The notes under the pieces were generated by a model. That model had not been told where the DNA came from. It saw only the letters and a list, made by a program, of their open reading frames with translations, and ran no database searches. Of a DNA stretch of 64,000 nt, positions 1,304 through 59,931 are shown one piece after another. Position 1 is the first letter of the stretch, and every line of letters starts with the position of its first letter. The DNA comes from a virus. Both the position numbers and the translations under genes were made by a program. Where the stretch lies: the UHGV virus genome UHGV-0101699. One strand, 5' to 3'.

Positions 1304-1476
1304 GGGTCACTTCCCGATAAATTAAATCACTAAAAGCATTGTCAGCGCTAAATATATAAGGGTAATTCGTCGAACAGGGAATTTATTTAGGCAACACCTT
1401 CGAGAAAATGCGATTTATTTCTAAGACTTTGATTTATTTATGAAATAAATTTTTTATCACCTCTTGCGAAAAATGC

Positions 1477-1505
1477 TTGATTTTATTTTTTGTATGTCGA
1501 TAATT
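1477..1505 (+). promoter_or_regulatory. sigma70-like promoter (TTGATT-17-ATAATT / GATAAT)
   Basis: Near-consensus -35 and -10 hexamers with 16-17 bp spacer, ~70 bp upstream of ORF at 1577. Confidence 0.5.
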
Positions 1506-1576
1506 AGTCACATCGAAAGCGAACACGCCAACGATAGAACGAAATAATTTTCTAATTTAAAGTAAGGATTAAAATA

Positions 1577-2227
1577 ATGTCTAACGTAACCATTTCTAAA
1601 AAATCCATCATTGATGCTGCTGTAGTTATCACTGACGAATTACAATTAAAAGCAGATCAAGCTACTCAGACTTACAACGAACATTATCAGAATGGCACGC
1701 ACACCAAAGCAGATAAAGCTAACATGCTTGCAGCGTCTACTAAACTTGCATACTTCGTGAATAACGTTGTAAACGCAGTAAACGACGATAAGCTGTCTGG
1801 TGTTTTCTACTACGCGATTAAAGCAAGCAAGCAAACGCCAGAAGTGTTTTTCCGCGAAGCGATGACAAATAGCTACTCTCTCGAAAAGCTGGTTTATCTG
1901 GTTAAGTCTATCAAGTCTGGTAAATGTGTGTATTCAGTCGCTGATATGTCCGGATCTCGTGTATTCGCTTTAATCGATATGATTAACGATGAGATCGACA
2001 CGTTCACAAATGGCGCTGTTTTCGATTTGATGAATGAAGCGAAAAAAGCGTGCGAAATTAAGTTAGACGCAGGCTATACGCAAGCCAACCAGCTGATCAA
2101 TCTTTGCGAGCGTCTCGGACTGGTCGAGAAAATCAAAGGAATGGGCGCAGCGAAAAACGGATCGCAACAATATCGCTTTATTAAAAATGATTTTTATAAC
2201 TATCTGGCTGATGCTTTCAAAGCGTAA
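1577..2227 (+). CDS. hypothetical protein (216 aa)
   Basis: Clean ORF with upstream AGGA RBS and strong promoter; no recognisable domain. Confidence 0.6.
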   Translation: MSNVTISKKSIIDAAVVITDELQLKADQATQTYNEHYQNGTHTKADKANMLAASTKLAYFVNNVVNAVNDDKLSGVFYYAIKASKQTPEVFFREAMTNSYSLEKLVYLVKSIKSGKCVYSVADMSGSRVFALIDMINDEIDTFTNGAVFDLMNEAKKACEIKLDAGYTQANQLINLCERLGLVEKIKGMGAAKNGSQQYRFIKNDFYNYLADAFKA

Positions 2228-2237
2228 TTAGATGGAT

Positions 2238-2262
2238 ATAGCGCCCAATATGGGCGCTATAA
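2238..2262. promoter_or_regulatory. 25-bp perfect palindrome TATAGCGCCCA-ATA-TGGGCGCTATA
   Basis: 11-bp perfect arms between two plus-strand genes; member of a family of GCGCC(C)A-N3-TGG(G)CGC palindromes at 2238-2640. Confidence 0.4.
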
Positions 2263-2274
2263 AGGAGCTTAATC

Positions 2275-2505
2275 ATGGTAATTTTCATCTCTGGCGTTAA
2301 CATCAATAATGAATATTATATTAATCGCATCGCTGGGATCGCTGGGATCGCTGGGCGCGCAGTCGAGCTTATAGATGAAACGACGCGTAAAATTGACTTA
2401 CTGAGCGACCAGGAGCGAAAAAAAGCAGACGTGAACGACGCTGATATATTTTTAATGTTAAAAGCGTTTGCAGAAATGGGATTTAAAATCAGTTTACACA
2501 AATAA
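2275..2505 (+). CDS. hypothetical small protein (contains IAGIAGIAG triplet repeat)
   Basis: 76-aa ORF; cgctgggat x3 tandem repeat inside; followed by terminator. Confidence 0.45.
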   Translation: MVIFISGVNINNEYYINRIAGIAGIAGRAVELIDETTRKIDLLSDQERKKADVNDADIFLMLKAFAEMGFKISLHK

Positions 2506-2510
2506 AATCG

Positions 2511-2536
2511 AGCGCCCACTATGGGCGCTTTTTTCG
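2511..2536 (+). terminator. rho-independent terminator
   Basis: agcgccca-cta-tgggcgct stem followed by TTTTTT. Confidence 0.6.
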
Positions 2537-2553
2537 TTTCCAATACTCCCACC

Positions 2554-2579
2554 ATAACGCGCCAACAATGGCGCGTTAT
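2554..2579. repeat. palindrome ATAACGCGCCA-ACA-ATGGCGCGTTAT
   Basis: 11-bp perfect inverted repeat, same family as 2238 and 2511. Confidence 0.4.
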
Positions 2580-2994
2580 CTTTTATCTGGCGTTCACTCA
2601 TTCACACCAAAAATAAGCGCCATAAATGCGCCAATTTAACGCGTTTTTACGTGTGGTAGTACATACCCATTACACACAGTAAAAAACACGTTATAGCGCG
2701 TTTAAAAGCGTTTTAGCGCGTGGCTTATTTTGTCGTGTCGTGGGCGTGATCGTCTGGCGTTATCTGGTGACGTGATCCGCGCTATCCTTCGGGGCGTGTT
2801 GGCAATGTTGGCGCTATCCGTGGGCGCTCGCGTATCATTGGCGCGACGTGATCCGCGCTTGCAGTGGTTTACCCACGGATTCACATAATCACATAGCGAA
2901 AGCTATCTGGATGGCTCAGGGGCTGAAACTCCACCAGCGTTACCCCAGCGCCGCTACGCAATTTCTGGCGCGATTCTGGGCTTCTCCCGCTCTG

Positions 2995-3142
2995 TTTTCT
3001 ACATAAAGGCAAACCCAGCCGTTTCCCGAAAATTTCCTGACCGTTTCCCTTCGGTTCCCCTGACAGCCCTCTGGCCGTTTATGAATTTCCCTGCGGGAGC
3101 TGGTGGACGGAAAGAAAGGGGCGTTTCCAGCCCCCTCCCCTC
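2995..3142. repeat. non-coding repeat element copy 1 (shares 21-mer ACCCAGCCGTTTCCCGAAAAT with 6401)
   Basis: Shared 20-21-mer, shared TTCCCCTGCGGG segment and CCCCTCCCCTCTTA end with copy at 6376-6580. Confidence 0.5.
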
Positions 3143-3625
3143 TTACTTGCCAGCCAGTATGTGAATCCGATTGCTGGCGTATACATTCAGCATAAAGTTA
3201 GCGCAAAACAGTTTCCATGAGTCAACGCCAGCGGCATACGTGATGTTTTTGCATTTAATTGCATTGTTGGCGATCCGCATACCCTGCGCTATTGCTTCAT
3301 CATCGCTAAAATCGAAGGACGATTGAGTCTTAATCCAGATAGCGATCTGCGAGGCAAACTCAGTCAGCTTGGACTGGCAGAATCGCCCGGAGCGCACCGG
3401 GAAGACAAATGTTCCAAACCCAGAATTTACCACATACGCTTTCTCAAATACCCGCGTGAATCGACGGTTGCAAATGATGTCTTTGGCGATCTGCTGCTTC
3501 TCTTTCCCGGACAGCTGGATGGTCTCTTCTTCGCGCCAGGCGCCCAGGATGTTCTTTTCAATGTCGGAGTATGTAACAGAGATGGTGCCATGCGCGGGAG
3601 TGTTTACAGTGGCGATATAGTTCAT
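3143..3625 (-). CDS. hypothetical protein (160 aa)
   Basis: ORF preceded by conserved early promoter/leader motif at 3641-3676. Confidence 0.6.
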   Translation of the reverse strand: MNYIATVNTPAHGTISVTYSDIEKNILGAWREEETIQLSGKEKQQIAKDIICNRRFTRVFEKAYVVNSGFGTFVFPVRSGRFCQSKLTEFASQIAIWIKTQSSFDFSDDEAIAQGMRIANNAIKCKNITYAAGVDSWKLFCANFMLNVYASNRIHILAGK

Positions 3626-3640
3626 TGTGATAATCCTTTA

Positions 3641-3700
3641 AACAATTTGTTTTCTAGTTGGTTTAATTATCGCAGTGGGTGTGAGGTGTCCAAGCGTTCT
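3641..3700 (-). promoter_or_regulatory. early-class promoter: TTGGAC-16-GATAAT followed by AACAAATTGTTTA leader palindrome
   Basis: Motif family repeated at least 14 times upstream of minus-strand genes. Confidence 0.5.
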
Positions 3701-3830
3701 GTTTCGGCAGCTGGTGGCCGTCGGGAAGTCGGTGGGTGCTTCGGTAGCCTGGCGGTAAGAGGTGGGTGTTTTTAGCCTGCGGGAAAGCAGGTGGTAATTG
3801 AGGGCCACCAGCATCGGTGGCCCTCCCCTC

Positions 3831-4130
3831 TCAATGAAGTAATCCGATGTCGATGGTGTCGCCTGAATCTGTCACGCGGATCATCAGCATAGCGAAGGCA
3901 TTCAGTGGATAACCGGCGTGCCATTCCGGGAAGCGGTCATCGCGCATGAAATCGGCAATGTCATAAACGCTATCCTGATAATGGAAGAAGCGGGAGCTGG
4001 TTTGTTCGTCCGGTTCGACGTGATCCATTTCTTTCTGCTCGGCCGGCGACAGGTCAAGCCAGGATTCCAGCCATACGTTTTCTGCTTTCGGGGAGATGGT
4101 GAAATCAGTCATATTTACCACCAGGCGCAA
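3831..4130 (-). CDS. hypothetical protein (99 aa)
   Basis: ORF; stop followed by GAGGGCCACC-GATGCTG-GGTGGCCCTC hairpin. Confidence 0.55.
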   Translation of the reverse strand: MRLVVNMTDFTISPKAENVWLESWLDLSPAEQKEMDHVEPDEQTSSRFFHYQDSVYDIADFMRDDRFPEWHAGYPLNAFAMLMIRVTDSGDTIDIGLLH

Positions 4131-4495
4131 AATGTCAGTCTGTTATTGTAGAAGTCGTGATTTTTAATCAGCTCATCCACAAGCTCTTTCAGCTCTTCCA
4201 CGTCATTCCAGTACCCTTCATCGTACTCCTGACTACCGAAGAAAAACCCTTCCTGGGTAGGCAGATACTCTTCACAATTGCTTTCGTTTAGACGAATCAA
4301 ATCAGCCTTGAGAGCACAAATATCATTCATCGTAACTTCTAAAAGTTCACAATTTACAACTTCACCTACGTTACGGTTCATCCACCCAACGAGAGCATTG
4401 AACTTACGGAAGTAGCCAACTTGCTTTCTGGATGCCTCGTTATTCAGATCGTTTTTTGGCTGCGTCTCAATATAGATATCAAGTCCCATGAACAT
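4115..4495 (-). CDS. hypothetical protein (126 aa)
   Basis: ORF preceded by early motif at 4521-4580. Confidence 0.55.
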   Translation of the reverse strand: MFMGLDIYIETQPKNDLNNEASRKQVGYFRKFNALVGWMNRNVGEVVNCELLEVTMNDICALKADLIRLNESNCEEYLPTQEGFFFGSQEYDEGYWNDVEELKELVDELIKNHDFYNNRLTFCAWW

Positions 4496-4617
4496 TTCCT
4501 CAACTTCGTTAATAACTTGTTTTCTTGTTGGTGTTATTATCGCAACTCAGAAAAGGTATAAAACAACTTGTTTACGGGTTGGGGAAAAATGGCGCGGGTT
4601 ACGCGCCATTGGCTGGT

Positions 4618-5025
4618 TTACTGGACGTTGTAGACGGACTCAGGCAGATACTCTTCCAGAGAGCCGCCAGACACAATGGTTATGCCGTATGAACCAACCC
4701 AGGTATTGTTGGCGCCAAGGTTGCCCTCGATCATATCCTGAACCTGTGCCATCAGGTTTTCGAAAATGGTCTTCGGGTCTGTTCGATAATAGGCTTCAAT
4801 GGCGGCCAGCAGAGTGTCCGAACCATTTTTCACTGACTGCTCGCCGACGGCATAAACCTTCGAGCGATCACGCTTAAGAGTTGTGCGGGCCAGCTGGGTG
4901 GTCACATGCGGAACAGCCGATGCATCACGGAACTGAACGGTCAGCTGGGCCAGTTTATTGCCTTCTTCGTCAGTGCTGGATGCGTAGTAAAGGTCAAATA
5001 CTAAATCTTCTTTGGTCAAACTCAT
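4618..5025 (-). CDS. hypothetical protein (start MSLTKEDLV)
   Basis: GGAGG RBS 8 nt upstream of ATG at 5025; the longer ORF-track start lacks an RBS. Confidence 0.55.
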   Translation of the reverse strand: MSLTKEDLVFDLYYASSTDEEGNKLAQLTVQFRDASAVPHVTTQLARTTLKRDRSKVYAVGEQSVKNGSDTLLAAIEAYYRTDPKTIFENLMAQVQDMIEGNLGANNTWVGSYGITIVSGGSLEEYLPESVYNVQ

Positions 5026-5144
5026 TTTTACCTCCATGTAAATGCGTCGTAATACTATCGCCGTAGGTAAGTACTTACAATACAAAAAAGCCCCGAAGGA
5101 TCGACGGGGCTGTCGTAAATTCGACTAATCTGTGTTGCACATGA

Positions 5145-5456
5145 CTATGCTATGGCGAGGGTTGTTGCGCGTTGAATTTCCTGCTGGGCGACCTTGTTAA
5201 CTTCCAGTAAAGCCAACTCCAGATCTGACTCAGGCCAGATAACTTGTTTAGCTACCCATCCTTTCCCACTATGGCGCCGGACGTTCATTACAATGCGCTT
5301 GCGAGAAGTTTCGCCGAAGACGACAACGGTCTCTTTGAAAAGTCGGATGGCTGTGCCGTTGGCCACTATGTCCAGTAAAGTGATCGAACCGAGTACTGCA
5401 GGTTTGTCTTTGCGAGGCTGGAGCTTATCCAGTTTCAAAATCATCTCGGTATTCAT
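5145..5456 (-). CDS. hypothetical protein (start MNTEMILK)
   Basis: ORF with early motif immediately upstream (5466-5500). Confidence 0.5.
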   Translation of the reverse strand: MNTEMILKLDKLQPRKDKPAVLGSITLLDIVANGTAIRLFKETVVVFGETSRKRIVMNVRRHSGKGWVAKQVIWPESDLELALLEVNKVAQQEIQRATTLAIA

Positions 5457-5592
5457 TACACACTCCGTAAACAATTTGTTTTCTTGTTTGTGTAAATAAT
5501 ACCAGTGTGAAAACGGCCACCAAGCGAAGCGTTCCGGCATTCAGCTGGCCGCAGGCCACATTCATTAAAAAGCCACCTGCTGGTGGCCGTGG

Positions 5593-5805
5593 TTAATCTT
5601 CGTCAGGGAACTCCTCTTTCACTGCGGCCACCAGCTCCCGCTTCTCTTCATCAGTCAACAGGTGCCACACGTCCTTCCCTTTTGGTGACTCTCCCTTAGC
5701 TGGTACAAACGACCATAATTTACGGGTCAGTGCTGGCCCTACGCCATCAAGACACTCAGCCAGCGAGTCCACGCTCCATACTTCCACAATCACAGGCATA
5801 TCCAT
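5593..5805 (-). CDS. hypothetical small protein
   Basis: 70-aa ORF in minus-strand early gene array. Confidence 0.5.
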   Translation of the reverse strand: MDMPVIVEVWSVDSLAECLDGVGPALTRKLWSFVPAKGESPKGKDVWHLLTDEEKRELVAAVKEEFPDED

Positions 5806-5817
5806 TGTCTCTCTCCT

Positions 5818-6036
5818 TTATCTGGACTCTGACGTTGTGCAGTTCCACGCGACGGACATTGCGTTGTCCTCGATATGAAAATCAAACGTGCCCTCGCGAT
5901 ACCCTTCGCCAATCAGCGTACCAATGCGCCCAGCGACATCCGCAGAGCGGATAACGTCATCCAGAGAGATCTGGAGTTCGTCAGTACATGTCTCTTCTCC
6001 GCAAAGGGTGATGCTGATGTTCAAATGCTTGTACAT
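5818..6036 (-). CDS. hypothetical small protein
   Basis: 72-aa ORF; early motif at 6057-6125 upstream. Confidence 0.5.
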   Translation of the reverse strand: MYKHLNISITLCGEETCTDELQISLDDVIRSADVAGRIGTLIGEGYREGTFDFHIEDNAMSVAWNCTTSESR

Positions 6037-6375
6037 GTTTTTCTCCTCTGTCTAAACACGTTGTTTTCTTGTTGGTGTTATTATCGCAATAAGACATAGG
6101 CGAAAAAGCATTTTGTATCGGGGAGAACTGGAAAAGCAGTGAGTATCCGGGAGTGTATCGGGAGCGCTTTTTACATTATTCTTCTCAACGCGCACCGCAG
6201 GGCTGGTGGGCAGTATTTTCCTCTTCCCGAAAACCTGCTGAAACAGCTTGTGACCCTCGAACGCTCTGGCAGAATACGAATCAGCAGCTGCGCGCAGCGG
6301 GAAGAAAGCCACCTGCGCACCAAGGGGTGTACCGCCAGAGAATCAGCCGTCCCCGCGGCATTTTGTCTCTATACC

Positions 6376-6580
6376 GGCACGCACCCTTTCCATGACGGGA
6401 ACCCAGCCGTTTCCCGAAAAATCTCCAGCCGTTTCTACTCAGGCAGCCAGCCTTTCCCCTGCGGGGACGCTCCCGATAGATTTTCGCGGTGGCCCTTTCA
6501 CTCGTTCGACCGCAGGGATGTTACGGCCGATAAAATCAGGACTTGAATAAATACGGGAAAGGGAGCGATCCCCCTCCATC
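6376..6580. repeat. non-coding repeat element copy 2
   Basis: See copy 1 at 2995-3142. Confidence 0.5.
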
Positions 6581-7586
6581 CCCTCTCTCTTATATCTGTG
6601 CTCTTTCCTGACTCGAATAACCTCTCTTATGGGGGACTCGTATCTCTCTTATTAGCGCTCTATACGGTGACCATTCGTATGGGAGAAAAGGCAACTTTCT
6701 TCTCTCTGCCGGTAAGTGGTTTTGCAGATGTTGTAGAGGTGGTGGTCTTGTGGTTTTACTCTGGTCTGTATTCTTCGTTTTGGGGATAGTTCTTCTCTGT
6801 GTATGGAGTGATGGCGTGCGCGCTTTTCCTTTCGTTCATCTTGAGAGGTGGAAGTGTGGGTGATGTGGTTTCTGGTCTGTTGTCGTTCTCCGCATGTGAA
6901 GTAATGGCGTTCCCTACTTATCAGGAATTTGCGTTATCTTTCGAGGTAAGAGTGGGTAAACGAGATGGCGCCGGGTACTGTTCTGGCCTGGTCTTGTCTG
7001 GAGTTTCTTCCCGGGTATTCTCTTCCGTGTATTGGGGAATGGCGTTCAGAGAAACTGGCTTTCTCTCGCCGCTTTTTGGTGGTGGTCGAGATTTGCTTCA
7101 TGGGGTCGATAGCCTGGGGCAATGAGGTTGGTCTTTTCGGTAGCCTGGCAGGAAGAGGTGGGTATTGCCTGGGTGTGGGGAAATGGCCGTTCCTTTTCTT
7201 CGTTATCTTGTTTTGTTGTTTTCTTCTTGCCTAAAACAATTTGTTTATATACTCATTAAACGCAACCAGAGCGATTCTGAGCGTGTCTGTTTTGTGGTGG
7301 TATCAGGAGTCGTTTTTGGCGTTTTCGTCGCAGGGTGTTGGTCTCTGGTACGCTGCTTAACGGATATAAGAAGTGACATGGCAAAACGTCAACTTTTGAG
7401 ACCAAATCAGGGTAAAGCGTTGACTTTTCATTGATGTGTTATTTATTTGTTTTCTTGTGGGTGTTATGTGCGTAAAAGCCTTGCCACGCCTGGAGTGTAT
7501 GAGGTTGGAGGGTAGGGGAGAGGGGCGATCAACGAGTTCTTATAGAAATCCTCAATTAGTGACCGCCAATGTCAACGCGTTGCAGG

Positions 7587-7781
7587 CTATGGTTGCGCGT
7601 TAACTATCCGCCAGGCTATCGCATAGACCTGCTCTCTAACTTCCGTATCCATCCACCCCCACTCATTGGCCAGTGCCTTTAACTCAGCAGGTATGTTGTC
7701 AAATACGGTGGCTATGAGGAGATGATCAGGTAGCTTACCCAGCTCCACCAGCACATCATTAATCACGTCTTCTGTCGTCAT
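7587..7781 (-). CDS. hypothetical small protein (start MTTEDVINDV)
   Basis: ORF; ATG at 7781 preceded by purine-rich stretch. Confidence 0.45.
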   Translation of the reverse strand: MTTEDVINDVLVELGKLPDHLLIATVFDNIPAELKALANEWGWMDTEVREQVYAIAWRIVNAQP

Positions 7782-7794
7782 CTTTTTCTCTCTC

Positions 7795-8112
7795 TTACCA
7801 GTCCCATGCTGGCATTCCATCCACCAGCTCGGCATCACGATCAAAGTGAACCACGTCGTAACCGGCATCCAGTATCATCTTGATATTGGCGATCGCCGCT
7901 TCGGAGATGTTGAATGTACGCAGTTCATCTGCCCAGCTATTGTCACGCATTCCGGCACGAACAATCCAACCATATTCTGTGCCGTGTACCCAGTTAAGAC
8001 CGCGATCGGTGATTGGGTCAAAACAGGCAATTGGCAACCGTTCGGAGTCTTCCGCAGTAACGTGCGCAGTGCTGATAACAGCTGTCTTGTAGGCTTCAGT
8101 GATTTTCAACAT
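7795..8112 (-). CDS. hypothetical protein (105 aa)
   Basis: ORF preceded by early motif at 8123-8190. Confidence 0.55.
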   Translation of the reverse strand: MLKITEAYKTAVISTAHVTAEDSERLPIACFDPITDRGLNWVHGTEYGWIVRAGMRDNSWADELRTFNISEAAIANIKMILDAGYDVVHFDRDAELVDGMPAWDW

Positions 8113-8233
8113 TACTCAACTCTTTTAACTAATTGTTTCCTTGTGTTAGTTATTATCAGCGATAAGAAAAGGTAGAAAACATTTTGTTTGAGGCAGTGCG
8201 GCTGTCTCGATACTGTCATGCGATAAGCAGTGG

Positions 8234-8506
8234 TTACGTTAAATTGAAGTCATCGAAATCGACGAACTCCATGTGTCTGGCTTCCACCTTTGCAAGAGTG
8301 AGCAGAAACAACATCCCCTCTCTAAGAGAGGTTGGTTGTTCGAGCAGGAACTCAAAACCGTCCACATGTGTCTTGCCCAACCAATAGCCGCCACCATACT
8401 GTCTCTCTCGCTGGAAAAAGACGCACTGGCCAGGTTTGAAATGTTTAAGTGTCTCGCCTCTGTAGACGATCTGATAACTGGTGTCTTTTCCGCCCATTTT
8501 AACCAC
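8234..8506 (-). CDS. hypothetical protein (90 aa)
   Basis: ORF in early array. Confidence 0.5.
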   Translation of the reverse strand: MVKMGGKDTSYQIVYRGETLKHFKPGQCVFFQRERQYGGGYWLGKTHVDGFEFLLEQPTSLREGMLFLLTLAKVEARHMEFVDFDDFNLT

Positions 8507-8628
8507 CTCAGAACACTGTATATTTAAACAGTAGTTCTTTGATGAAATGCGGTCAAGTTTGACAGTGGGGGTAATAACTTGTTGGTGAAAACAAATTATT
8601 TAAGGCCATAATAATGGCCTTATCACTG

Positions 8629-8886
8629 TTAATCTTTCAAGAAAACAGCTGCCGATGGATACTCATAAAGTACTCGTGTGAGCTCCCCTCTGGATTTTGC
8701 ATTCTCGAAGGCTTTCTCAGAGCATTGCACCCAAGTATTGCCGCCAACATTGACTTCGATGATCTCATCAGGCTCGTTGTCCATTGCGGCCAACAATACA
8801 ATAGCCATTCGATGAGCAATGTGATGCTTTCCGTATGTGGCAATCACTTCGTTAAGCTCATCTCTGGTTATGCTTGATTTGGTCAT
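8629..8886 (-). CDS. hypothetical protein (85 aa)
   Basis: ORF; 4-nt overlap with upstream gene suggests translational coupling. Confidence 0.5.
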   Translation of the reverse strand: MTKSSITRDELNEVIATYGKHHIAHRMAIVLLAAMDNEPDEIIEVNVGGNTWVQCSEKAFENAKSRGELTRVLYEYPSAAVFLKD

Positions 8887-9179
8887 GGTTGGCTCCAGCT
8901 ATCTTCAATTGCTACACCCAAGCGATGCAGCCAGTCGGCAAGTTTTAACATCGATTCACGATCACTAAGGCCTTCCGGGAAGTCTTTCATTTCGATAGTT
9001 GGCATAAAGCGCCCGAAACTATCGCGCTCCACGGTAAGAAATTGCTCCAGTATAGTCTTCTGAGCGTTGCTGCTATGTCGCACCAGATAAACGAATTTGG
9101 AGTCTTTGGCTTTAGGGTCGTAGCGATACTCAGTCAGTATCATCTGGCTTCTGCTGCGATCGGTTCCTCTCCACATCAC
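8883..9179 (-). CDS. hypothetical protein (98 aa)
   Basis: ORF, coupled overlaps on both sides. Confidence 0.5.
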   Translation of the reverse strand: MMWRGTDRSRSQMILTEYRYDPKAKDSKFVYLVRHSSNAQKTILEQFLTVERDSFGRFMPTIEMKDFPEGLSDRESMLKLADWLHRLGVAIEDSWSQP

Positions 9180-9505
9180 TCAGCCTTCACCTTGATGCCA
9201 GCGGCGGCAGCTGTACGCGCATAAACGAGCACTCCGTCCTCGGGGCGCTTGCGCTGCAAAAAGATACCAGGGCGCGGCCACAGAGCAATAAAGCGGCATT
9301 CGCTGTTTTCAAGACGATGAAATGCTTTCTCGCTCATTACACCTACCGGGCGAAGTTGCTCTTGTTCGCGCTCCAGCTCGGCGATGCGCTTCTCGGCGGC
9401 TTCCAACGCTGTGATTGCATCATTAGAAATGCTCGTCATTTGCATACCATTATCATGAGACGCATCTTCGAAACGATCCCACAGTCGTGATGAATTACTC
9501 ACCAT
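9176..9505 (-). CDS. hypothetical protein (109 aa)
   Basis: ORF in coupled chain 8629-10911. Confidence 0.5.
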   Translation of the reverse strand: MVSNSSRLWDRFEDASHDNGMQMTSISNDAITALEAAEKRIAELEREQEQLRPVGVMSEKAFHRLENSECRFIALWPRPGIFLQRKRPEDGVLVYARTAAAAGIKVKAE

Positions 9506-9728
9506 TGGCCCCCCTTATTTTCATAGCCTGAAACTCGAAATAATCCCCGGCAGAATCCATATATGACATCAATTCAGCATATTCACCGGCTATTGCCTGC
9601 GCCTTCTCCAGCGCCTCTAGCAGTGCCAGAACGTCATCGGCTTTTATGAAGAACAGGCCTTCGCCAAACTCATTTGCTGAAGCAGCTCGCCGTCTCAGGC
9701 TCTGCGCCAGTTCGGTGATATCAGTCAT
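9495..9728 (-). CDS. hypothetical protein (77 aa)
   Basis: ORF in coupled chain. Confidence 0.5.
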   Translation of the reverse strand: MTDITELAQSLRRRAASANEFGEGLFFIKADDVLALLEALEKAQAIAGEYAELMSYMDSAGDYFEFQAMKIRGANGE

Positions 9729-10282
9729 GCTGCACGCTCCATTTCTACCAGCCCGACACGAACCGCATTCACGATGCGATCGAGGTATTGATAATTCGGG
9801 TTAGGCACAGAAGGCCATCGTGCGTAACATGGGTCGTCGCCAAAAAGCTCCAAAAGTTCATTACCAATGCCGTAGTCGCAGCAACATGCCTTAACGTCAT
9901 CAGCATTTTCGGCTTCATCCCACATTTCGCGAGCTTTCTCAGCATCAAGTTCCCGTTCGCGACGAAGCTTAATGATATGGGCCTTAACGAACGCTAGATT
10001 CGCTTCGTTGTCGTCGTCAACCGAGCTTTCAAGTTGAGGATCTAAGCAACCAATCAGATAGTCATTGCTAACGCGCTTAATAAAAGCCTGAACAGAATCA
10101 CCACCCATGGCGAACCAGGCAGCTGTCCATGCCTTGCCGAAGCAGGTGATTGTGATACGGCCCTTTCCGGGCTCGTAGTTTTCAATCATCACCCTGATTG
10201 GGTCGAGGCGATCGACGTTGGTAATAGTGAAAGCCATAACGTCCATTCGTTCTACTTTCATGCGCTCTCCCATGCGCCCCAA
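9725..10282 (-). CDS. hypothetical protein (185 aa, Cys cluster CCCDYG)
   Basis: ORF overlapping the HD-hydrolase gene end by 25 nt. Confidence 0.55.
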   Translation of the reverse strand: MGRMGERMKVERMDVMAFTITNVDRLDPIRVMIENYEPGKGRITITCFGKAWTAAWFAMGGDSVQAFIKRVSNDYLIGCLDPQLESSVDDDNEANLAFVKAHIIKLRRERELDAEKAREMWDEAENADDVKACCCDYGIGNELLELFGDDPCYARWPSVPNPNYQYLDRIVNAVRVGLVEMERAA

Positions 10283-10911
10283 ATCAGCGCCTTGTGCTTT
10301 TCAAAACGTTTCATGTGTACCGGCTGAAGACTGGCTATACCTTCCACTACCACATCACGAGCTTTAATCAGTAATGCATGCTCGATACCTTTTTTCTCCA
10401 GAAGGTCAACGACACGCTCGTCGGCGCCAATTTCCTTATTCTCAAATAGGACCTTGAGCATTAACTCTTTTTCAGCGAGATAGATGGCCGAAAACTCAGG
10501 ATCGCGGTCGACGATAAACGACGTGTTATCCAGCAGATCGGCCAGCTTTATCATGCGTGTCTGCATATCAAGGCTTTGTGACAGCTCCAGAACGTTAATA
10601 ACGAAACGTTGCACCCTATTTCCGTCTTCTGGCTTGGCTATATTGGTGAGGGCCAGCACCATTTCAGCGACACGCTCACCGAAGTGTTCCCGAACCATCT
10701 CAATGGTTACATGGGTATCTTCCACTACGTCATGCAGTAATGCTGCAATCTGCATCTCAACAGTACCGCCATACCAGGCAACTATTGATCGGACTGAGTC
10801 TGGGTGGTGGATGTAATCCTCACCTGTATATTTCCGTTTCTGACCAACACCGCCATGAGCGCCGGCAGCAAACATGAAAGCTTTAGATACACTCGACATT
10901 CTTATCTCCAT
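10258..10911 (-). CDS. HD-domain hydrolase, Mesh1/SpoT-like (putative alarmone/nucleotide pyrophosphohydrolase)
   Basis: Motifs HHPDSVRSIV ... AALLHDVVEDT match the RelA/SpoT HD hydrolase signature (H..HD..ED). Confidence 0.7.
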   Translation of the reverse strand: MEIRMSSVSKAFMFAAGAHGGVGQKRKYTGEDYIHHPDSVRSIVAWYGGTVEMQIAALLHDVVEDTHVTIEMVREHFGERVAEMVLALTNIAKPEDGNRVQRFVINVLELSQSLDMQTRMIKLADLLDNTSFIVDRDPEFSAIYLAEKELMLKVLFENKEIGADERVVDLLEKKGIEHALLIKARDVVVEGIASLQPVHMKRFEKHKALIWGAWESA

Positions 10912-11014
10912 TGTTTACTTAACTTATTTATTTTCACAGATAAGAAAAGGCAGAAAACAAGTTGTTTAAGGCTATTGATATAGCCTTAAATTGGTGAAAC
11001 CAGTTACGACCCCA

Positions 11015-11743
11015 TCATGATGCGGTGGCGTGTAGGTTTTGCCGCTGCAGTGTCTTGACCTGTTCTTCAAGCTCACGCACATACTCAACAAGAGATCCGC
11101 CTGGCGGTATTTGGCACTCTTCCATGAGTTGAAAGTAAACGTCGGCTGCCGCGCGAATGTTTGAGCCTTTGGTTAGCTGATCACTGAGCAGTTCGTCGCG
11201 CTCTTTCATAAGCCGTACGCATTCTCCATTGCGTTGGTTGACTACAGCCTCCAGCTCTGCGATGCGATCGCCTGGCGTTTTGCACCCCTTACGTTGAGTC
11301 GTAACCGTGAAATATCCAAGCTCAGGAACGTCGTAGCTCAATTCCAGATAGTTTTTTGCACCGTGTCGAACAAATTCGCCGGCGAACATGGTGGCGAACA
11401 TGGCAGAGGCCAGCTCTCCGTTAAACAACGATTCCAGATCTACAGGAGTGCCAGCAGCAAGAGCGGCACGCGCAGCCTCTATGACATTCATAAACTCATC
11501 ATAATGTCTGGCGCGTTTCTCCAGCTCTGCCCACTGCTGACTAGTTCGACGCACCAGGTACTCAATAAAAATCAGCGCTGATTCGTCGGCGTCGCCTTCA
11601 AATGAGACCTTACCTTTATCGACAATAATCGTGCCCACAGCGGTTGGGTTGTTGCCCTGAAGACAAAATCTGAAAGGAGTGTCCGTGCTCATCGGTGATA
11701 CAGCCTGTATATCCATAGAAGTGGCTTTATTCCTGCTTTCCAT
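11015..11743 (-). CDS. hypothetical protein (242 aa)
   Basis: ORF between MTase and HD hydrolase. Confidence 0.55.
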   Translation of the reverse strand: MESRNKATSMDIQAVSPMSTDTPFRFCLQGNNPTAVGTIIVDKGKVSFEGDADESALIFIEYLVRRTSQQWAELEKRARHYDEFMNVIEAARAALAAGTPVDLESLFNGELASAMFATMFAGEFVRHGAKNYLELSYDVPELGYFTVTTQRKGCKTPGDRIAELEAVVNQRNGECVRLMKERDELLSDQLTKGSNIRAAADVYFQLMEECQIPPGGSLVEYVRELEEQVKTLQRQNLHATAS

Positions 11744-11804
11744 GTGTGTTTCCCTCTTAATTTCGCGTCATCATTTTTACACATAATAAGTATGTAGTTA
11801 CCTA

Positions 11805-13490
11805 TTATTTTGTTCGTTTGAAGACATACACACTGACAGTTATCCCCGTGTCATCAAACTCGCCTGTGTACGACTTACCTTTGGCGTAGACGAAATTATC
11901 CAGCATCATCCAGCTCAGTGTTGGTGAGTCCCCCGGCAAAACAGCAACAAGGCGCCCACCGACTTTCAGATGTCCCAGCCCAGCCAGCGTGTGTTCTTTG
12001 TGGCGCCCGAGAGAGTAGGGTGGATTCATGACTATCTTGTCGAAGAGGTAGCCTTCATTGTCAGCAGACCACTTCATGAAGTCACAGCAGACTGTGTTCA
12101 CGTAGCCTTTACCAAGAAGGATGTCAGCAAATAGCGGCGCAACCTCAACACAGGTCACGTCCTCAGGATTCGCCTCAATAAACGTAAGCAGATCTCCGCG
12201 ACCAGCTTCCGGCTCCAGCAATGTTTCGCCAGATTTCAAGTCAACGACCTTGGCCACGTACTCCGCGATTACACGAGGGGTAGGGTAGAACTGATGTGAT
12301 TTTGCATCCGGCATCAAACCTGTCGCCACAATCGTATTGAGTGTTTGACCGATCTCATACGGGAACTGCCAGTGCTTTTTATCCTGTACGCCGCCAATGA
12401 AGCTCAATGTGCGCTCCAACTCTTCAACCTGCGACTTCTGGAGACTGGAATCAGAGAAGTACCAAACCCCCTTGTCTTTGCTGAATCGCCCGTCACGTAA
12501 AGTGGATCGAACGGGCTCAGAGATGGTCTTTTGAATGAGGCCAAACTCCTCAGGCGCTCTGGTTTTTGGGGCTGTTCGGCAGGGGGCAGGTATAGCGGCC
12601 GGCATACTGTACGCCAGCACCTCATTAAGCTTCCAGGCAACATCTGGGTGGATCTCAAAATGCACATTACCGTTCTTGAACATTTTCACGCGCATGAGGT
12701 TACCATCCACGTTGATCCAATCACCCGTCTGGCAATCATTTGCCCGGTACGCAGCCGATAGCATCTCTGTTGTGCGGTTAATGGTGATGAACTCCTTATG
12801 CGCAAAGAAATGCAGCATTACACGCAGGTCATCGATGTAATCCTCTTTCCGATAGTTCACGCTGACACTATCCCGCCAGAACTCTGAAATGCAGCTGGCG
12901 ATGATCAGACGCTCGCTAAAGCCGTTCGTTTTATTGGTCTTATGCGCAGGGCTTAGCGCCTTAAACAAACCGTAAACGCGCTCAGAGAGATATTTATGCC
13001 TGTCATTCAGCAGATTGACCATCGTGGGGATGACCGTCTCTGCTTTGAACTCAGGTACGCCAACGAACTCCTTAACCTTCATCTGGTAGCCGGTTCTGTC
13101 AGTCTTGATGGTTTCCTGCTTGCCTTCTATGAACTGTTCGCGCCATTCATCTCGGCGGGAAGCTGGCATGATCAGCAGAACGTTTGTCATATCCGTGACC
13201 TTCTTCCAGTATTCGGCCCAGATATTCTGCTTCACCCACTCAAGATCGACCTTATCCAGCCAAGCTCTGTTGAAGCGTGTGCGTTCGTCATCCGGCCGGT
13301 GGTTGAGTCGAAGCAGGCGGTTAATCATGTTGTGACGCTCATCGCCATAAACGAAGTCGTGAACCTGGTGCATGAACGCGATCTCTTTCTCGCACTCGGC
13401 AACGATGTCATGGATGACGTTCATCTCTTTGCTATGGTCGATACCGGTGTTCGAAGCAAGAGACTCAAGGACAGAAAGCGCTGTACTCAT
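11805..13490 (-). CDS. DNA methyltransferase with large N-terminal domain of unknown function (probable N6-adenine, NPPY motif)
   Basis: C-terminal EPEAGRGDL (SAM-binding motif I) ... VMNPPYS (motif IV); about 360 aa N-terminal extension. Confidence 0.7.
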   Translation of the reverse strand: MSTALSVLESLASNTGIDHSKEMNVIHDIVAECEKEIAFMHQVHDFVYGDERHNMINRLLRLNHRPDDERTRFNRAWLDKVDLEWVKQNIWAEYWKKVTDMTNVLLIMPASRRDEWREQFIEGKQETIKTDRTGYQMKVKEFVGVPEFKAETVIPTMVNLLNDRHKYLSERVYGLFKALSPAHKTNKTNGFSERLIIASCISEFWRDSVSVNYRKEDYIDDLRVMLHFFAHKEFITINRTTEMLSAAYRANDCQTGDWINVDGNLMRVKMFKNGNVHFEIHPDVAWKLNEVLAYSMPAAIPAPCRTAPKTRAPEEFGLIQKTISEPVRSTLRDGRFSKDKGVWYFSDSSLQKSQVEELERTLSFIGGVQDKKHWQFPYEIGQTLNTIVATGLMPDAKSHQFYPTPRVIAEYVAKVVDLKSGETLLEPEAGRGDLLTFIEANPEDVTCVEVAPLFADILLGKGYVNTVCCDFMKWSADNEGYLFDKIVMNPPYSLGRHKEHTLAGLGHLKVGGRLVAVLPGDSPTLSWMMLDNFVYAKGKSYTGEFDDTGITVSVYVFKRTK

Positions 13491-13618
13491 AATTTCACCA
13501 TATAAACAATTTGTTTTCTTATTGGTTTTATTATCTCAGACAAGAAAAGGCATAAAAGATCTATACAGAGGGCTACGGAGGAGGGGAAGGGGGCTCTCGC
13601 CCCCTTGCTATTTCAGGT

Positions 13619-23892: not shown

Positions 23893-24768
23893 TTACAAGG
23901 TGTTTTTAACCACTTCATACAGCGAAGATGCCTGTGCTTGCTCAAGGAAACGAGACAGATCGACATCGCTATATGTCGGCGATTTAAGGATTTTTCCATC
24001 AGACAGGCGATAGCCGATCATCATGTCAGTGCCGTCAGCATGGCGGAATCCGAGGTCATTCTTATCATATTTACATCTCTCAACGGCAAGACGACGCGCT
24101 TCAGCATCCGCCGGCCACAGCTTTGTCATATTAGAACGGTGGATCTCCGCCACCAGCTCCACGACGTCGACGCCAAGGAATTCAGCCAGGCGATACACCA
24201 TCATGCACGCCACATAGATTTTGTTCATCACGCGGCGCAGATCCTGAATCAGCTCAGCATCACCTACCTTGTTATGTTCAAGTTTATCGGCCAGCGCGGC
24301 CAACATAAGCGCAGCTTCTTCTGCTTCATTGAAGGGGATGGCCATATCGTCGAAGACGGTATTTCCAGGCACCATAATGGTATGAATAAAGCGATCGACG
24401 CTTTGCTCCTGAGTGTAGTAGCTCATGCCAGTTGATAGCCCACCTTTGATGGCTACCATCGTCCCGACACCCACATACAGGAAATCAGCCATTGCATCCA
24501 GCAATCCCTGCATATCCCCCTTTTTCGCTGCAGGCAGCCCTTCTTCTACCGCCTCTTCATGGATCAGCTTAGCGCGCAGGCGCAGCAGCTCCGGAGTGGG
24601 CATTACACGACGCGGGTGCTGAAACAGCTCGTGGAACTGGTCAACCATCTTGTAAATACTCTCTGTCGCTTCTCCAAAACCGGGGTTCAGCTCATATGGC
24701 TCTGGTTTGAAGCCCACCAGTTTATCGGTGGCCAGCTTGAGATGGTCGGTCAGTTTCGTTAATTTCAT
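23893..24768 (-). CDS. putative all-alpha NTP pyrophosphohydrolase (MazG/dimeric dUTPase-like), tentative
   Basis: Acidic helix motifs EEAVEEG ... DAMADFLYV; position next to thyA/nrd genes. Confidence 0.4.
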   Translation of the reverse strand: MKLTKLTDHLKLATDKLVGFKPEPYELNPGFGEATESIYKMVDQFHELFQHPRRVMPTPELLRLRAKLIHEEAVEEGLPAAKKGDMQGLLDAMADFLYVGVGTMVAIKGGLSTGMSYYTQEQSVDRFIHTIMVPGNTVFDDMAIPFNEAEEAALMLAALADKLEHNKVGDAELIQDLRRVMNKIYVACMMVYRLAEFLGVDVVELVAEIHRSNMTKLWPADAEARRLAVERCKYDKNDLGFRHADGTDMMIGYRLSDGKILKSPTYSDVDLSRFLEQAQASSLYEVVKNTL

Positions 24769-44753: not shown

Positions 44754-45102
44754 TTTGTTATGTATCCGCTTACTAATTTATATCAATAGTACCATGAAGA
44801 AATCAGCTGGTGGAGCATGTGTCGTGAAGATGAGAGGGGGTAGGTTGGGTAGAGACGTTTATGTGGCGACGCTGTGAAAAGGAAAATAAATGTTGCACAA
44901 ACAGAAAGGCCATGCGTTAATGATTGCGTCGGTTTGCAAGACAGACCTTATGAAAGCAGTTTTAGTAAAGCAGTCCGAAGTTCAGGTGTTATCCAAAGAT
45001 TACCCTTCTCCGTGAGTCTCCTCCTAAGTGCCCAAGTAAGTACCAATCTCTCAGACCAATTTCGCCGCGTTGTGTGGCTCTCAAATAATGAAGGTAATCT
45101 CT

Positions 45103-45318
45103 ATGTCTAACAAAATGACTGGTTTAGTAAAATGGTTTAACGCTGATAAAGGCTTCGGTTTTATTACCCCAGCAGACGGCAGCAAAGACGTGTTCGTACA
45201 TTTCTCTGCCATCCAGAGCAACAACTTCCGTACCCTGGAAGAAGGCCAAAAAGTTGAGTTCTCTATTGAGAACGGTGCTAAAGGCCCTGCTGCTTCAAAC
45301 GTAGTTACGTTGAGCTAA
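45103..45318 (+). CDS. cspA: cold-shock protein CspA family
   Basis: [38 protein letters not shown] ... near-identical to E. coli CspA; AAGG RBS; about 230-nt upstream leader. Confidence 0.9.
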
Positions 45319-45440
45319 TTTCATTTCGGTAATCTATCCGCTGCGATAACGATGACGGCCTGAGCCTGAGTAGTCAGTTTGGAAGGATTATTGGAAGGAG
45401 TTAAAGGTCGTTAGATCTGGACGGCTTCTCTACTAACTCC

Positions 45441-59621: not shown

Positions 59622-59708
59622 TTGGCGGAGGATAATGGAATCGAACCATCATCGCTTTCGCAATGGGACGGTTTTCAAGACCGCTTGGGCGCCATGCCCT
59701 CTATCCTC
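59622..59708 (-). tRNA. tRNA-Ser (anticodon UGA), CCA encoded
   Basis: GGAGGAT acceptor, anticodon arm GCGGTCTTGAAAACCGT identical to E. coli tRNA-Ser(UGA), long variable arm, T-arm GGTTCGATTCC. Confidence 0.75.
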
Positions 59709-59856
59709 CGTTCGTTGTGACGCCAGATGCTTATCTTCTGGTTGCTTCAACGAGCTGCAATTCATCACAACGGTAAGGGCATTCAGGGAATCAGATCCGT
59801 CGCGAACAGCCAAAGAGCGCGCCTTCCTTGCTGTCGTCCAAATACCCTTACCGTTG

Positions 59857-59931
59857 TGGCGATGGTGGGTGGATTCGAACCACCGACCAGTTGATTAACA
59901 GTCAACCGCTCTACCACTGAGCTACACCATC
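59857..59931 (-). tRNA. tRNA-Asn (anticodon GUU), CCA encoded
   Basis: GATGGTGTAGCTCAGTGGTAGAGC D-arm, anticodon loop CTGTTAA, T-arm GGTGGTTCGAATCCACC, 7-bp acceptor. Confidence 0.85.

Follow-up and report, generated by a model that had tools for sequence, protein, structure and literature searches.

The small alarmone hydrolase (SAH) of Salmonella phage SSU5, designated PaSpo, neutralized all five toxic small alarmone synthetases (toxSAS) against which it was tested by co-expression in E. coli, namely CapRel, PhRel, PhRel2, FaRel2 and FaRel (Jimmy et al. 2020, PMC7229694 Table 1). The same study already proposed that incoming phages may evade alarmone-mediated defense by means of their own alarmone hydrolases (PMC7229694). 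The SSU5 enzyme also serves as a laboratory tool that detoxifies overexpressed CapRelSJ46 (PMC9712102) and FaRel2, for which leaky expression was sufficient (PMC11559606), and it was used for detoxification of PhRel2 (Kurata 2021 preprint). In the FaRel2 study, PaSpo(SSU5) is said to act 'by removing the tRNA modification' (PMC11559606), and four of the five toxins attach pyrophosphate to tRNA at its 3'-CCA end without making a diffusible signal (Kurata 2021 preprint). Here we describe a minus-strand gene in a stretch of 64,000 nucleotides from UHGV virus genome UHGV-0101699, which we refer to as the window. Judged by sequence and gene order, it very probably encodes an alarmone hydrolase and is the syntenic ortholog of the SSU5 SAH in a Klebsiella phage-plasmid.

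The SSU5 protein SSU5_099 (YP_006906731.1), annotated as a 213-aa 'metal-dependent phosphohydrolase', is 85% identical to the window SAH over 213 of 213 residues, with 32 substitutions and no gaps. Its gene occupies the equivalent position downstream of a DUF4942 methyltransferase gene, and in both elements the same gene comes next and overlaps it (ATGA junction; SSU5_100, 77% identity). A tblastn search of the SSU5 genome with the SAH as query gave one match at E≤0.01, and the original GenBank name of SSU5_099 was 'putative guanosine polyphosphate pyrophosphohydrolase/synthetase'. On account of this single RSH-like (RelA/SpoT homolog-like) locus and its original name, we take SSU5_099 to be the PaSpo SAH of Jimmy et al. 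2020. The sub-label 'PaSpo', a subfamily defined by profile models and phylogeny (Atkinson 2011; Jimmy et al. 2020), would be inherited by the window protein from its SSU5 ortholog. The P. aeruginosa SAH 6YVC was matched at E=0.002, no more closely than MESH1 or SpoT. From 2020 on, the ortholog has been cloned and assayed and the same interpretation has been given to it, so that the kind of enzyme, the activity of SSU5 PaSpo and the idea of counter-defense are already published and the window gene represents no new kind of biology.

At its maximal extent, the open reading frame (ORF) covers positions 10258-10911 of the minus strand and encodes 217 aa when counted from the first ATG. These were the limits of the hydrolase gene in the original prediction, and an ORF with the motifs quoted there is present, its product carrying YIHHPDSV and AALLHDVVEDT; the strand had not been stated and the true start likely lies at 10899. 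This second ATG, which would yield a product of 213 aa (10258..10899, minus strand), is most likely the true start of the SAH because it is preceded by a GGAG Shine-Dalgarno motif (10906..10909, minus strand, 6 nt 5' of the ATG; upstream sequence AATGGAGATAAGA-ATG), because both PGAP and the SSU5 annotation give a length of 213 aa, and because the Met encoded at 10899 is the first residue in all close homologs. The reading as an SAH coding sequence is supported by the ORF listing, the Pfam HD_4 match, the identity to SSU5_099, an AlphaFold2 model and Foldseek, and the profile, homolog and fold matches place it far beyond what chance would produce.

The window SAH has every testable property of the RSH hydrolases and SAHs with respect to profile, residues, fold and single-domain architecture. 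Residues 11-139 match positions 1-133 of the 156 positions of Pfam HD_4 (PF13328) with 64.5 bits, compared to a gathering score of 27.2 (E=1.2e-17), and further matches were obtained with phrog_990, a 'metal-dependent phosphohydrolase' family (E=4.8e-48), and with the N-terminal hydrolase part of TIGR00691 spoT_relA (positions 1-120, E=9.6e-24). Apart from HD_4 and an overlapping HD model, the 213-aa protein has no Pfam matches, and a synthetase, TGS or ACT domain is absent. At E≤1e-5, 6527 homologs were found, and the sequence matches in the PDB comprised 22 RSH hydrolase sequences. Both phmmer and a 53-sequence profile detected exclusively RSH hydrolase domains in the PDB (SpoT, Rel, MESH1, RelH, Lmo0812, Aph1 and the P. 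aeruginosa SAH).

Residue numbers given here follow the 213-aa protein, and conservation was scored in the alignment of 53 homologs, which shows no variation at H32, P33, H56, E60, D61, D121 or N125 and retains D57, R22 and K23 in at least 90% of the sequences. The metal-binding signature H...HD...D is represented by H32, H56, D57 and D121, which phmmer aligned with the HP, HD and D motifs of Rel and SpoT, and the catalytic ED pair with its downstream Asn by E60 and D61 in LLHDVVEDT and by N125. By comparison with the RelSeq structure (Hogg et al. 2004), the conserved residues correspond to H53, H77/D78, E81/D82, D144/N148 and R44/K45 of RelSeq, which in this family serve as ligands of the metal, as the catalytic ED pair and as contacts to the nucleotide. 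An AlphaFold2 model was built from the 53-sequence alignment, and P0002, a protein 99% identical to SSU5_099, was included in the structure run. The model comprises 12 helices and has a mean predicted local distance difference test score of 97 and a predicted template modeling (TM) score of 0.92; the C-terminal 70 residues appear in it as helical extensions of the same domain. Among the best 50 Foldseek matches in the PDB, all are RSH hydrolase domains (MESH1, RelH, P. aeruginosa SAH, Aph1, Rel and SpoT) with human MESH1 leading; 42 hits had E≤0.001, and TM scores normalized to the target reached up to 0.77. In a viral structure library, Foldseek retrieved phage proteins annotated as HD proteins or as '(p)ppGpp hydrolase'. 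The assignment to Mesh1/SpoT-like HD pyrophosphohydrolases, which the original prediction had derived from the His/Asp signature, is therefore borne out at the level of sequence, by the conservation of the catalytic residues and by the predicted fold.

The same prediction had called the enzyme phage-encoded. Phage genes are indeed present, but they do not belong to a purely lytic phage; the element is a Klebsiella pneumoniae phage-plasmid of the SSU5 type. The 5.1-kb segment that includes the SAH gene (window 8500-13600) is 100% identical to K. pneumoniae plasmid p-T-hvKP-2 and about 97-99.9% identical to many non-mobilizable IncFIB Klebsiella plasmids of ~108-114 kb and to 'Klebsiella phage pJN2-26'. 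The annotated plasmid combines terminase, portal and capsid genes with RepB, ParB and an IncFIB replicon, and the methyltransferase gene adjoining the SAH shares 83% DNA identity with phage SSU5. The identification as an SSU5-like phage-plasmid is based on this combination of phage structural genes with RepB and ParB and on the relatedness to SSU5.

In the likely mechanism, the residues of the H...HD...D motif would bind a metal ion, the ED pair would activate water, and the 3'-pyrophosphate would be removed from (p)ppGpp, (pp)pApp and, by inference, also from pyrophosphorylated tRNA CCA ends. We infer that the window allele acts on all three. Since four of the five toxins modify the CCA end of tRNA, such tRNA is probably a relevant substrate besides (pp)pApp and (p)ppGpp. 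By enzymatic reversal of the toxin products, the element and the cell that it occupies would be shielded from toxSAS of toxin-antitoxin (TA) and abortive-infection systems such as CapRel, FaRel2 and PhRel, and host (p)ppGpp could be lowered too. A role in dismantling alarmone signals used by anti-phage systems had been suggested for the window gene; it agrees with the hypothesis published for the 85% identical SSU5 ortholog, while cyclic oligonucleotides, suggested as additional targets, found no support and modified tRNA would probably have to be added.

Counter-defense against toxSAS is our tentative choice for the main selected function, with a likelihood that we place slightly short of even. 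In favor of it, we count the presence or absence of the gene among near-identical plasmids, the Tad2-like gene and the methyltransferases nearby in relatives, and the occurrence of decayed copies. The behavior of an accessory, mosaic and often lost gene is typical of counter-defense cargo, which is circumstantial evidence. Together with the five genes downstream of it, the SAH gene forms a 2.37-kb presence/absence cassette between imperfect 36-bp direct repeats that hold terminator-like hairpins. The upstream repeat copy (GAAAACAAGTTGTTTAAGGCTATTGATATAGCCTTA, 10953..10988) was recognized by a pattern search and by alignment with the other copy and the empty site, and its minus-strand hairpin (10990-10965) lies just before the SAH gene. 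The downstream copy (GAAAACAAATTATTTAAGGCCATAATAATGGCCTTA, 8587..8622), found by the same pattern search and alignment, has its minus-strand hairpin (8622-8601) just after the last gene. Klebsiella phage ST13-OXA48phi12.3 contains one copy of the repeat (L003:2575-2625) and none of the six cassette genes, with both flanks conserved. A foreign origin of the cassette was also considered on the basis of composition, but its GC content of 0.48-0.51 equals that of the backbone and is therefore uninformative.

The SAH is common across elements of the SSU5 type from Salmonella, Enterobacter, Citrobacter and E. coli, with alleles of 60-90% identity in about 143 plasmids, and its surroundings vary. An allele with 52% identity is placed upstream of a DUF4942 methyltransferase gene, and one with 43% identity (L011: 6001-6609) lies between a TerB-like gene and a methyltransferase gene; a DUF4942 methyltransferase is also found at most about 1 kb from the SAH in the loci L001, L005 and L011/L012. 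About 2 kb upstream of the 43% allele, a Tad2-like gene is encoded (PF11195, Thoeris anti-defense; L011: 3563-3877), and the DUF4942 methyltransferase gene follows shortly downstream of this allele, an arrangement that fits an anti-defense neighborhood. Decayed SAH copies in related Enterobacteriaceae include one truncated form of 139 aa (P0011, on 139 contigs) and two fusions without the HP and HD motifs. The first of these fusions (P0009) consists of a P-loop ATPase N-terminus joined to the SAH from 'EDTHVT' on, and in the second (P0012) the N-terminus of a protein that resembles the 242-aa product encoded upstream of the cassette (window 11015-11743) is joined to the SAH from 'VAEMV' on. 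Separately, an allele of 231 aa with 62% identity (L008-L010: 6001-6696), found in ~109.5-kb E. coli phage-plasmid contigs, lies directly 3' of a gene for a 677-aa protein resembling methionyl-tRNA synthetase (L008-L010: 3815-5848; domains tRNA-synt_1g, Anticodon_3 and tRNA_bind). This neighbor is suggestive because SAHs repair pyrophosphorylated tRNA.

Several points weigh against this reading of the enzyme and its role. The cassette is dispensable for the life cycle of the element, as most related Klebsiella plasmids do not carry it: a 501-bp probe for the empty site was contiguous in 153 of the 195 matching PLSDB plasmids, compared to about 26 plasmids with an allele of at least 95% identity. 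A scan for sigma-70 promoters detected no promoter-like site upstream of the SAH gene, and overall fewer sites than in shuffled sequences. The activity of the window allele and its part in infection are predictions. For the SSU5 enzyme, the documentation that we found appears to consist of in vivo neutralization; de-pyrophosphorylation of tRNA in vitro was shown for MESH1 and the C. marina SAH ATfaRel, and not for the SSU5 enzyme, in the available text of the preprint (Kurata 2021 preprint). In our literature search, we found no paper in which a phage SAH rescued a phage from toxSAS defense during infection.

Alternatively, and as the chief rival of this reading, the main job of the enzyme could be manipulation of the host stringent response independently of dedicated defense systems, with degradation of host (p)ppGpp sustaining transcription, translation and nucleotide synthesis during lytic replication, or replication in the plasmid state. 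We regard this as possible but rather unlikely. The nearest sequence relatives of its hydrolase domain are those of the (p)ppGpp hydrolases SpoT and Rel, and its gene is located within a long minus-strand block for nucleotide metabolism and replication (nrdAB, thyA, dhfr, a MazG-like nucleoside triphosphate (NTP) pyrophosphohydrolase and RNase H). The literature additionally connects restricted phage growth with the stringent response, and the phage MazG-like protein Atd1 with depletion of (p)ppGpp. However, a gene that is dispensable in most close relatives and decayed in several lineages is not expected for core replication support, and the sole functional data on the ortholog concern neutralization of toxSAS. 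The two roles are not mutually exclusive.

We consider it improbable that the gene was selected mainly for lysogenic conversion or immunity, in which a resident hydrolase would guard Klebsiella from (p)ppApp-synthetase toxins delivered by competitors, such as Tas1-type effectors of the type VI secretion system, MuF polymorphic toxins of phages or toxSAS on incoming elements. SAHs confer self-resistance to toxic alarmone synthetases (PMC9765508, PMC10083569, PMC12226406, PMC12691689), and the element persists as a plasmid with an IncFIB replicon, RepB and ParB, so that genes expressed in the lysogen can benefit the host. Both expression in the plasmid state and hydrolysis of (p)ppApp in this clade would have to be assumed, however, and the gene resides in a co-oriented block of phage genes with no recognizable lysogeny module adjoining it.

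Still lower is the likelihood of a true substrate other than an alarmone or modified tRNA, be it NADPH or 3'-phosphoadenosine 5'-phosphosulfate (PAPS), as reported for metazoan MESH1, or the cyclic oligonucleotides of immune signaling. The top structural matches do include MESH1-NADPH and MESH1-PAPS complexes, and RSH hydrolases are described as promiscuous (PMC9765508). Yet what the enzymes of this family take off the ribose is a 3'-(pyro)phosphate, a group that cyclic oligonucleotides do not have, cleavage of cyclic oligonucleotides by an RSH enzyme is not reported in the literature that we found, and the documented phenotype of the ortholog is neutralization of pyrophosphokinase toxins. That the SAH is the type IV antitoxin of a neighboring toxSAS, as in FaRel-ATfaRel, with one of the uncharacterized genes of the chain as toxin, is hardly credible: SAH antitoxins of toxSAS do exist (PMC7229694) and the window gene is translationally coupled to genes without assigned function, but the five downstream proteins and the upstream 242-aa protein have neither a RelA_SpoT synthetase domain nor any other Pfam match at E≤0.01 and match no PADLOC model, the plasmid with 100% identity over window 8500-13600 has no RelA/SpoT synthetase in its annotation, the only consistently coupled partner (gene 2) is missing beside more distant SAH alleles, and the SSU5 SAH was described as stand-alone (PMC7229694). 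The adjacent RelA_SpoT-type synthetase toxin that characterizes a type IV toxSAS-SAH module was accordingly not found, and the reading as a TA module was rejected after Pfam and PADLOC searches with the five downstream genes, the 242-aa gene and ten more neighbors had yielded only TerB, DUF5983, DUF4942 and methyltransferase models.

Within the preferred reading as counter-defense, a more far-reaching proposal is that the SAH represents the payload of a small mobile counter-defense cassette that recombination at the 36-bp terminator-like repeat moves into and out of SSU5-like phage-plasmids, with clade-specific C-terminal helices adapted to pyrophosphorylated tRNA, and that it disarms CapRel-type tRNA-targeting immunity in Klebsiella and other Enterobacteriaceae. 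We consider this proposal as a whole unlikely. If it is true, natural plasmid pairs that differ in the cassette would already provide the means to demonstrate, for the first time, anti-defense by an SAH in infection. More generally, alarmone hydrolases carried by phages could plausibly counteract abortive-infection toxins of the RelA/SpoT type (CapRel, FaRel2 and PhRel) as well as restriction by the stringent response. The practical value of the window gene is modest: it shows that Klebsiella phage-plasmids that are common in the clinic can carry such an enzyme on a discrete cassette, which is often absent and offers natural isogenic comparisons for counter-defense by SAHs at the level of infection.

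The SAH is the first gene in a chain of six co-oriented genes, and the translational coupling that the original prediction had proposed for positions 8629-10911 is confirmed by start/stop overlaps and by a Shine-Dalgarno-like purine run before each start. Each start overlaps the preceding stop, by 4 nt at 10261/10258 (ATGA), 9728/9725, 9179/9176 (GTGA) and 8886/8883 (ATGA) and by 11 nt at 9505/9495. All PHROG matches of the five SAH partners are to families of unknown function. Gene 2 (9725..10261, minus strand, 178 aa, function unknown), the ATG of which overlaps the SAH stop codon, matches positions 100-281 of phrog_3451 (E=2.5e-80) and is 77% identical to SSU5_100; Pfam and PADLOC gave no match, and a sequence search of the PDB produced only chance-level hits. 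An obligate pairing of gene 2 with the SAH was considered and rejected, since tblastn of the fetched loci detected gene 2 only beside SAH alleles of at least 85% identity and not beside those of 62%, 52% and 43%. Gene 3 (9495..9728, minus strand, 77 aa) overlaps gene 2 by 4 nt and gene 4 (9176..9505, minus strand, 109 aa) by 11 nt. Gene 3 matches the N-terminal part (positions 2-47) of the Ead/Ea22-like family phrog_4838 and gene 4 its positions 50-139, so that the two look like a split or frameshifted version of one Ead/Ea22-like PHROG family. In the related plasmid L004, a single gene of 534 nt replaces genes 3-5. Gene 5 (8883..9179, minus strand, 98 aa, phrog_1258, function unknown) has a GTG start within its GTGA overlap with gene 4. 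The last gene of the chain, gene 6 (8629..8886, minus strand, 85 aa, function unknown), is joined to gene 5 by an ATGA overlap and directly followed by the terminator-like hairpin.

Upstream of the cassette, the backbone gene for the 242-aa protein (11015..11743, minus strand, phrog_8364, function unknown) is found in relatives with the empty site as well as in those that carry the cassette. Its N-terminus matches positions 15-101 of phrog_3451, and together with gene 2 (positions 100-281) it thus covers consecutive parts of this family. From these alignments, phrog_3451 may include a fusion of both genes, or the SAH may sit between pieces of a once continuous gene. Next to it lies the methyltransferase gene (11805..13490, minus strand, 561 aa), which encodes DUF4942 (Pfam, E=8.6e-21) and a class I S-adenosylmethionine-dependent DNA methyltransferase and matches phrog_6263 ('DNA methyltransferase') and PADLOC methyltransferase models.

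Some further features of the window and of related plasmids were recorded. An ORF of 291 aa (23893-24768, minus strand) lies at the position of an 876-nt gene of p-T-hvKP-2 that PGAP named 'nucleoside triphosphate pyrophosphohydrolase family protein'. The name hints at a MazG-type enzyme, and the element may thus carry two candidate alarmone-degrading enzymes. From about 6050 to 7590, the window contains ~1.5 kb with no long ORF, for which the closest plasmid, if collinear, has no gene annotated; collinearity is off by ~94 bp further out. Strand asymmetry is strong between 6600 and 7500 (GC skew +0.25, AT skew -0.3 to -0.4), and searches of the region from about 6050 to 7590 returned no Rfam hit and one weak tandem repeat (period of 11 nt, 1.9 copies, score 37). 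A full-length cspA thermoregulator 5'-untranslated region RNA (Rfam RF01766, 188.6 bits) is located at 44928-45351 on the plus strand, and a cspG cold-shock gene annotated in the closest plasmid maps just downstream of it if the two are collinear. Two tRNA genes, tRNA-Ser(TGA) and tRNA-Asn(GTT), are encoded on the minus strand at 59623-59709 and 59857-59931. Outside the window, plasmid NZ_CP118908.1, which matches window 8500-13600 at 100%, has at 1361-11073 of its record a blaNDM-1-ble-groES/EL insertion bounded by IS5, IS26 and IS91 beside a tail-fiber gene. The SAH-bearing phage-plasmid backbone hence also occurs as a carbapenemase carrier.

Among the described systems, SSU5 PaSpo resembles the window SAH most closely with respect to the type of element and the methyltransferase and overlapping-gene context, and all catalytic residues are identical. 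The 32 substitutions between the two proteins are mostly located in the C-terminal helices, the host genus is Salmonella instead of Klebsiella, and the flanking small genes of SSU5 encode Eaa and an LprI-family protein in place of the Ead/Ea22-like pieces in the window. ATfaRel, a PbcSpo SAH and type IV antitoxin, and the SAH of Salmonella phage PVP-SE1 are likewise single-domain RSH hydrolases, which neutralize all tested toxSAS by enzymatic reversal and not by binding (PMC7229694). In vitro, tRNA modified by FaRel2 regains its aminoacylation through ATfaRel (Kurata 2021 preprint). Both belong to another SAH subfamily according to Jimmy et al., and the ATfaRel gene shares an operon with that of its toxin, whereas beside the window SAH no toxin gene was found.

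MESH1/HDDC3 (PDB 3NR1, 5VXA, 9CHY) is the best structural match, with a TM score of 0.75 normalized to the target, 28-29% identity and the same H/HD/ED/D site, and the human enzyme also neutralizes toxSAS (PMC7229694). In contrast to MESH1, for which NADPH was proposed as physiological substrate, the window protein is about 35 residues longer; relative to MESH1 and to SAHs of ~170 aa, it has a clade-specific insertion (~153-172) and an extra C-terminal helix (193-212). The highest sequence similarity among solved structures is to the HD domains of SpoT and Rel (PDB 7QPR/7QPS, 1VJ7, 5XNX, 6S2T; profile E-values of 1e-25 to 1e-22), which share the same motifs. Unlike these enzymes, the window SAH has no synthetase, TGS or ACT domains; without regulatory domains, an allosteric switch between hydrolase and synthetase or control by the ribosome would not operate, and the enzyme is presumably constitutively active. 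The MazG-like phage enzyme Atd1 (anti-TIR defense 1, where TIR denotes the Toll/interleukin-1 receptor domain) follows the same functional logic, in that its depletion of (p)ppGpp blunts abortive-infection toxicity, but it has the unrelated all-alpha NTP pyrophosphohydrolase fold of MazG and a different chemistry, and is thus an analogue of the window SAH and not a homologue.

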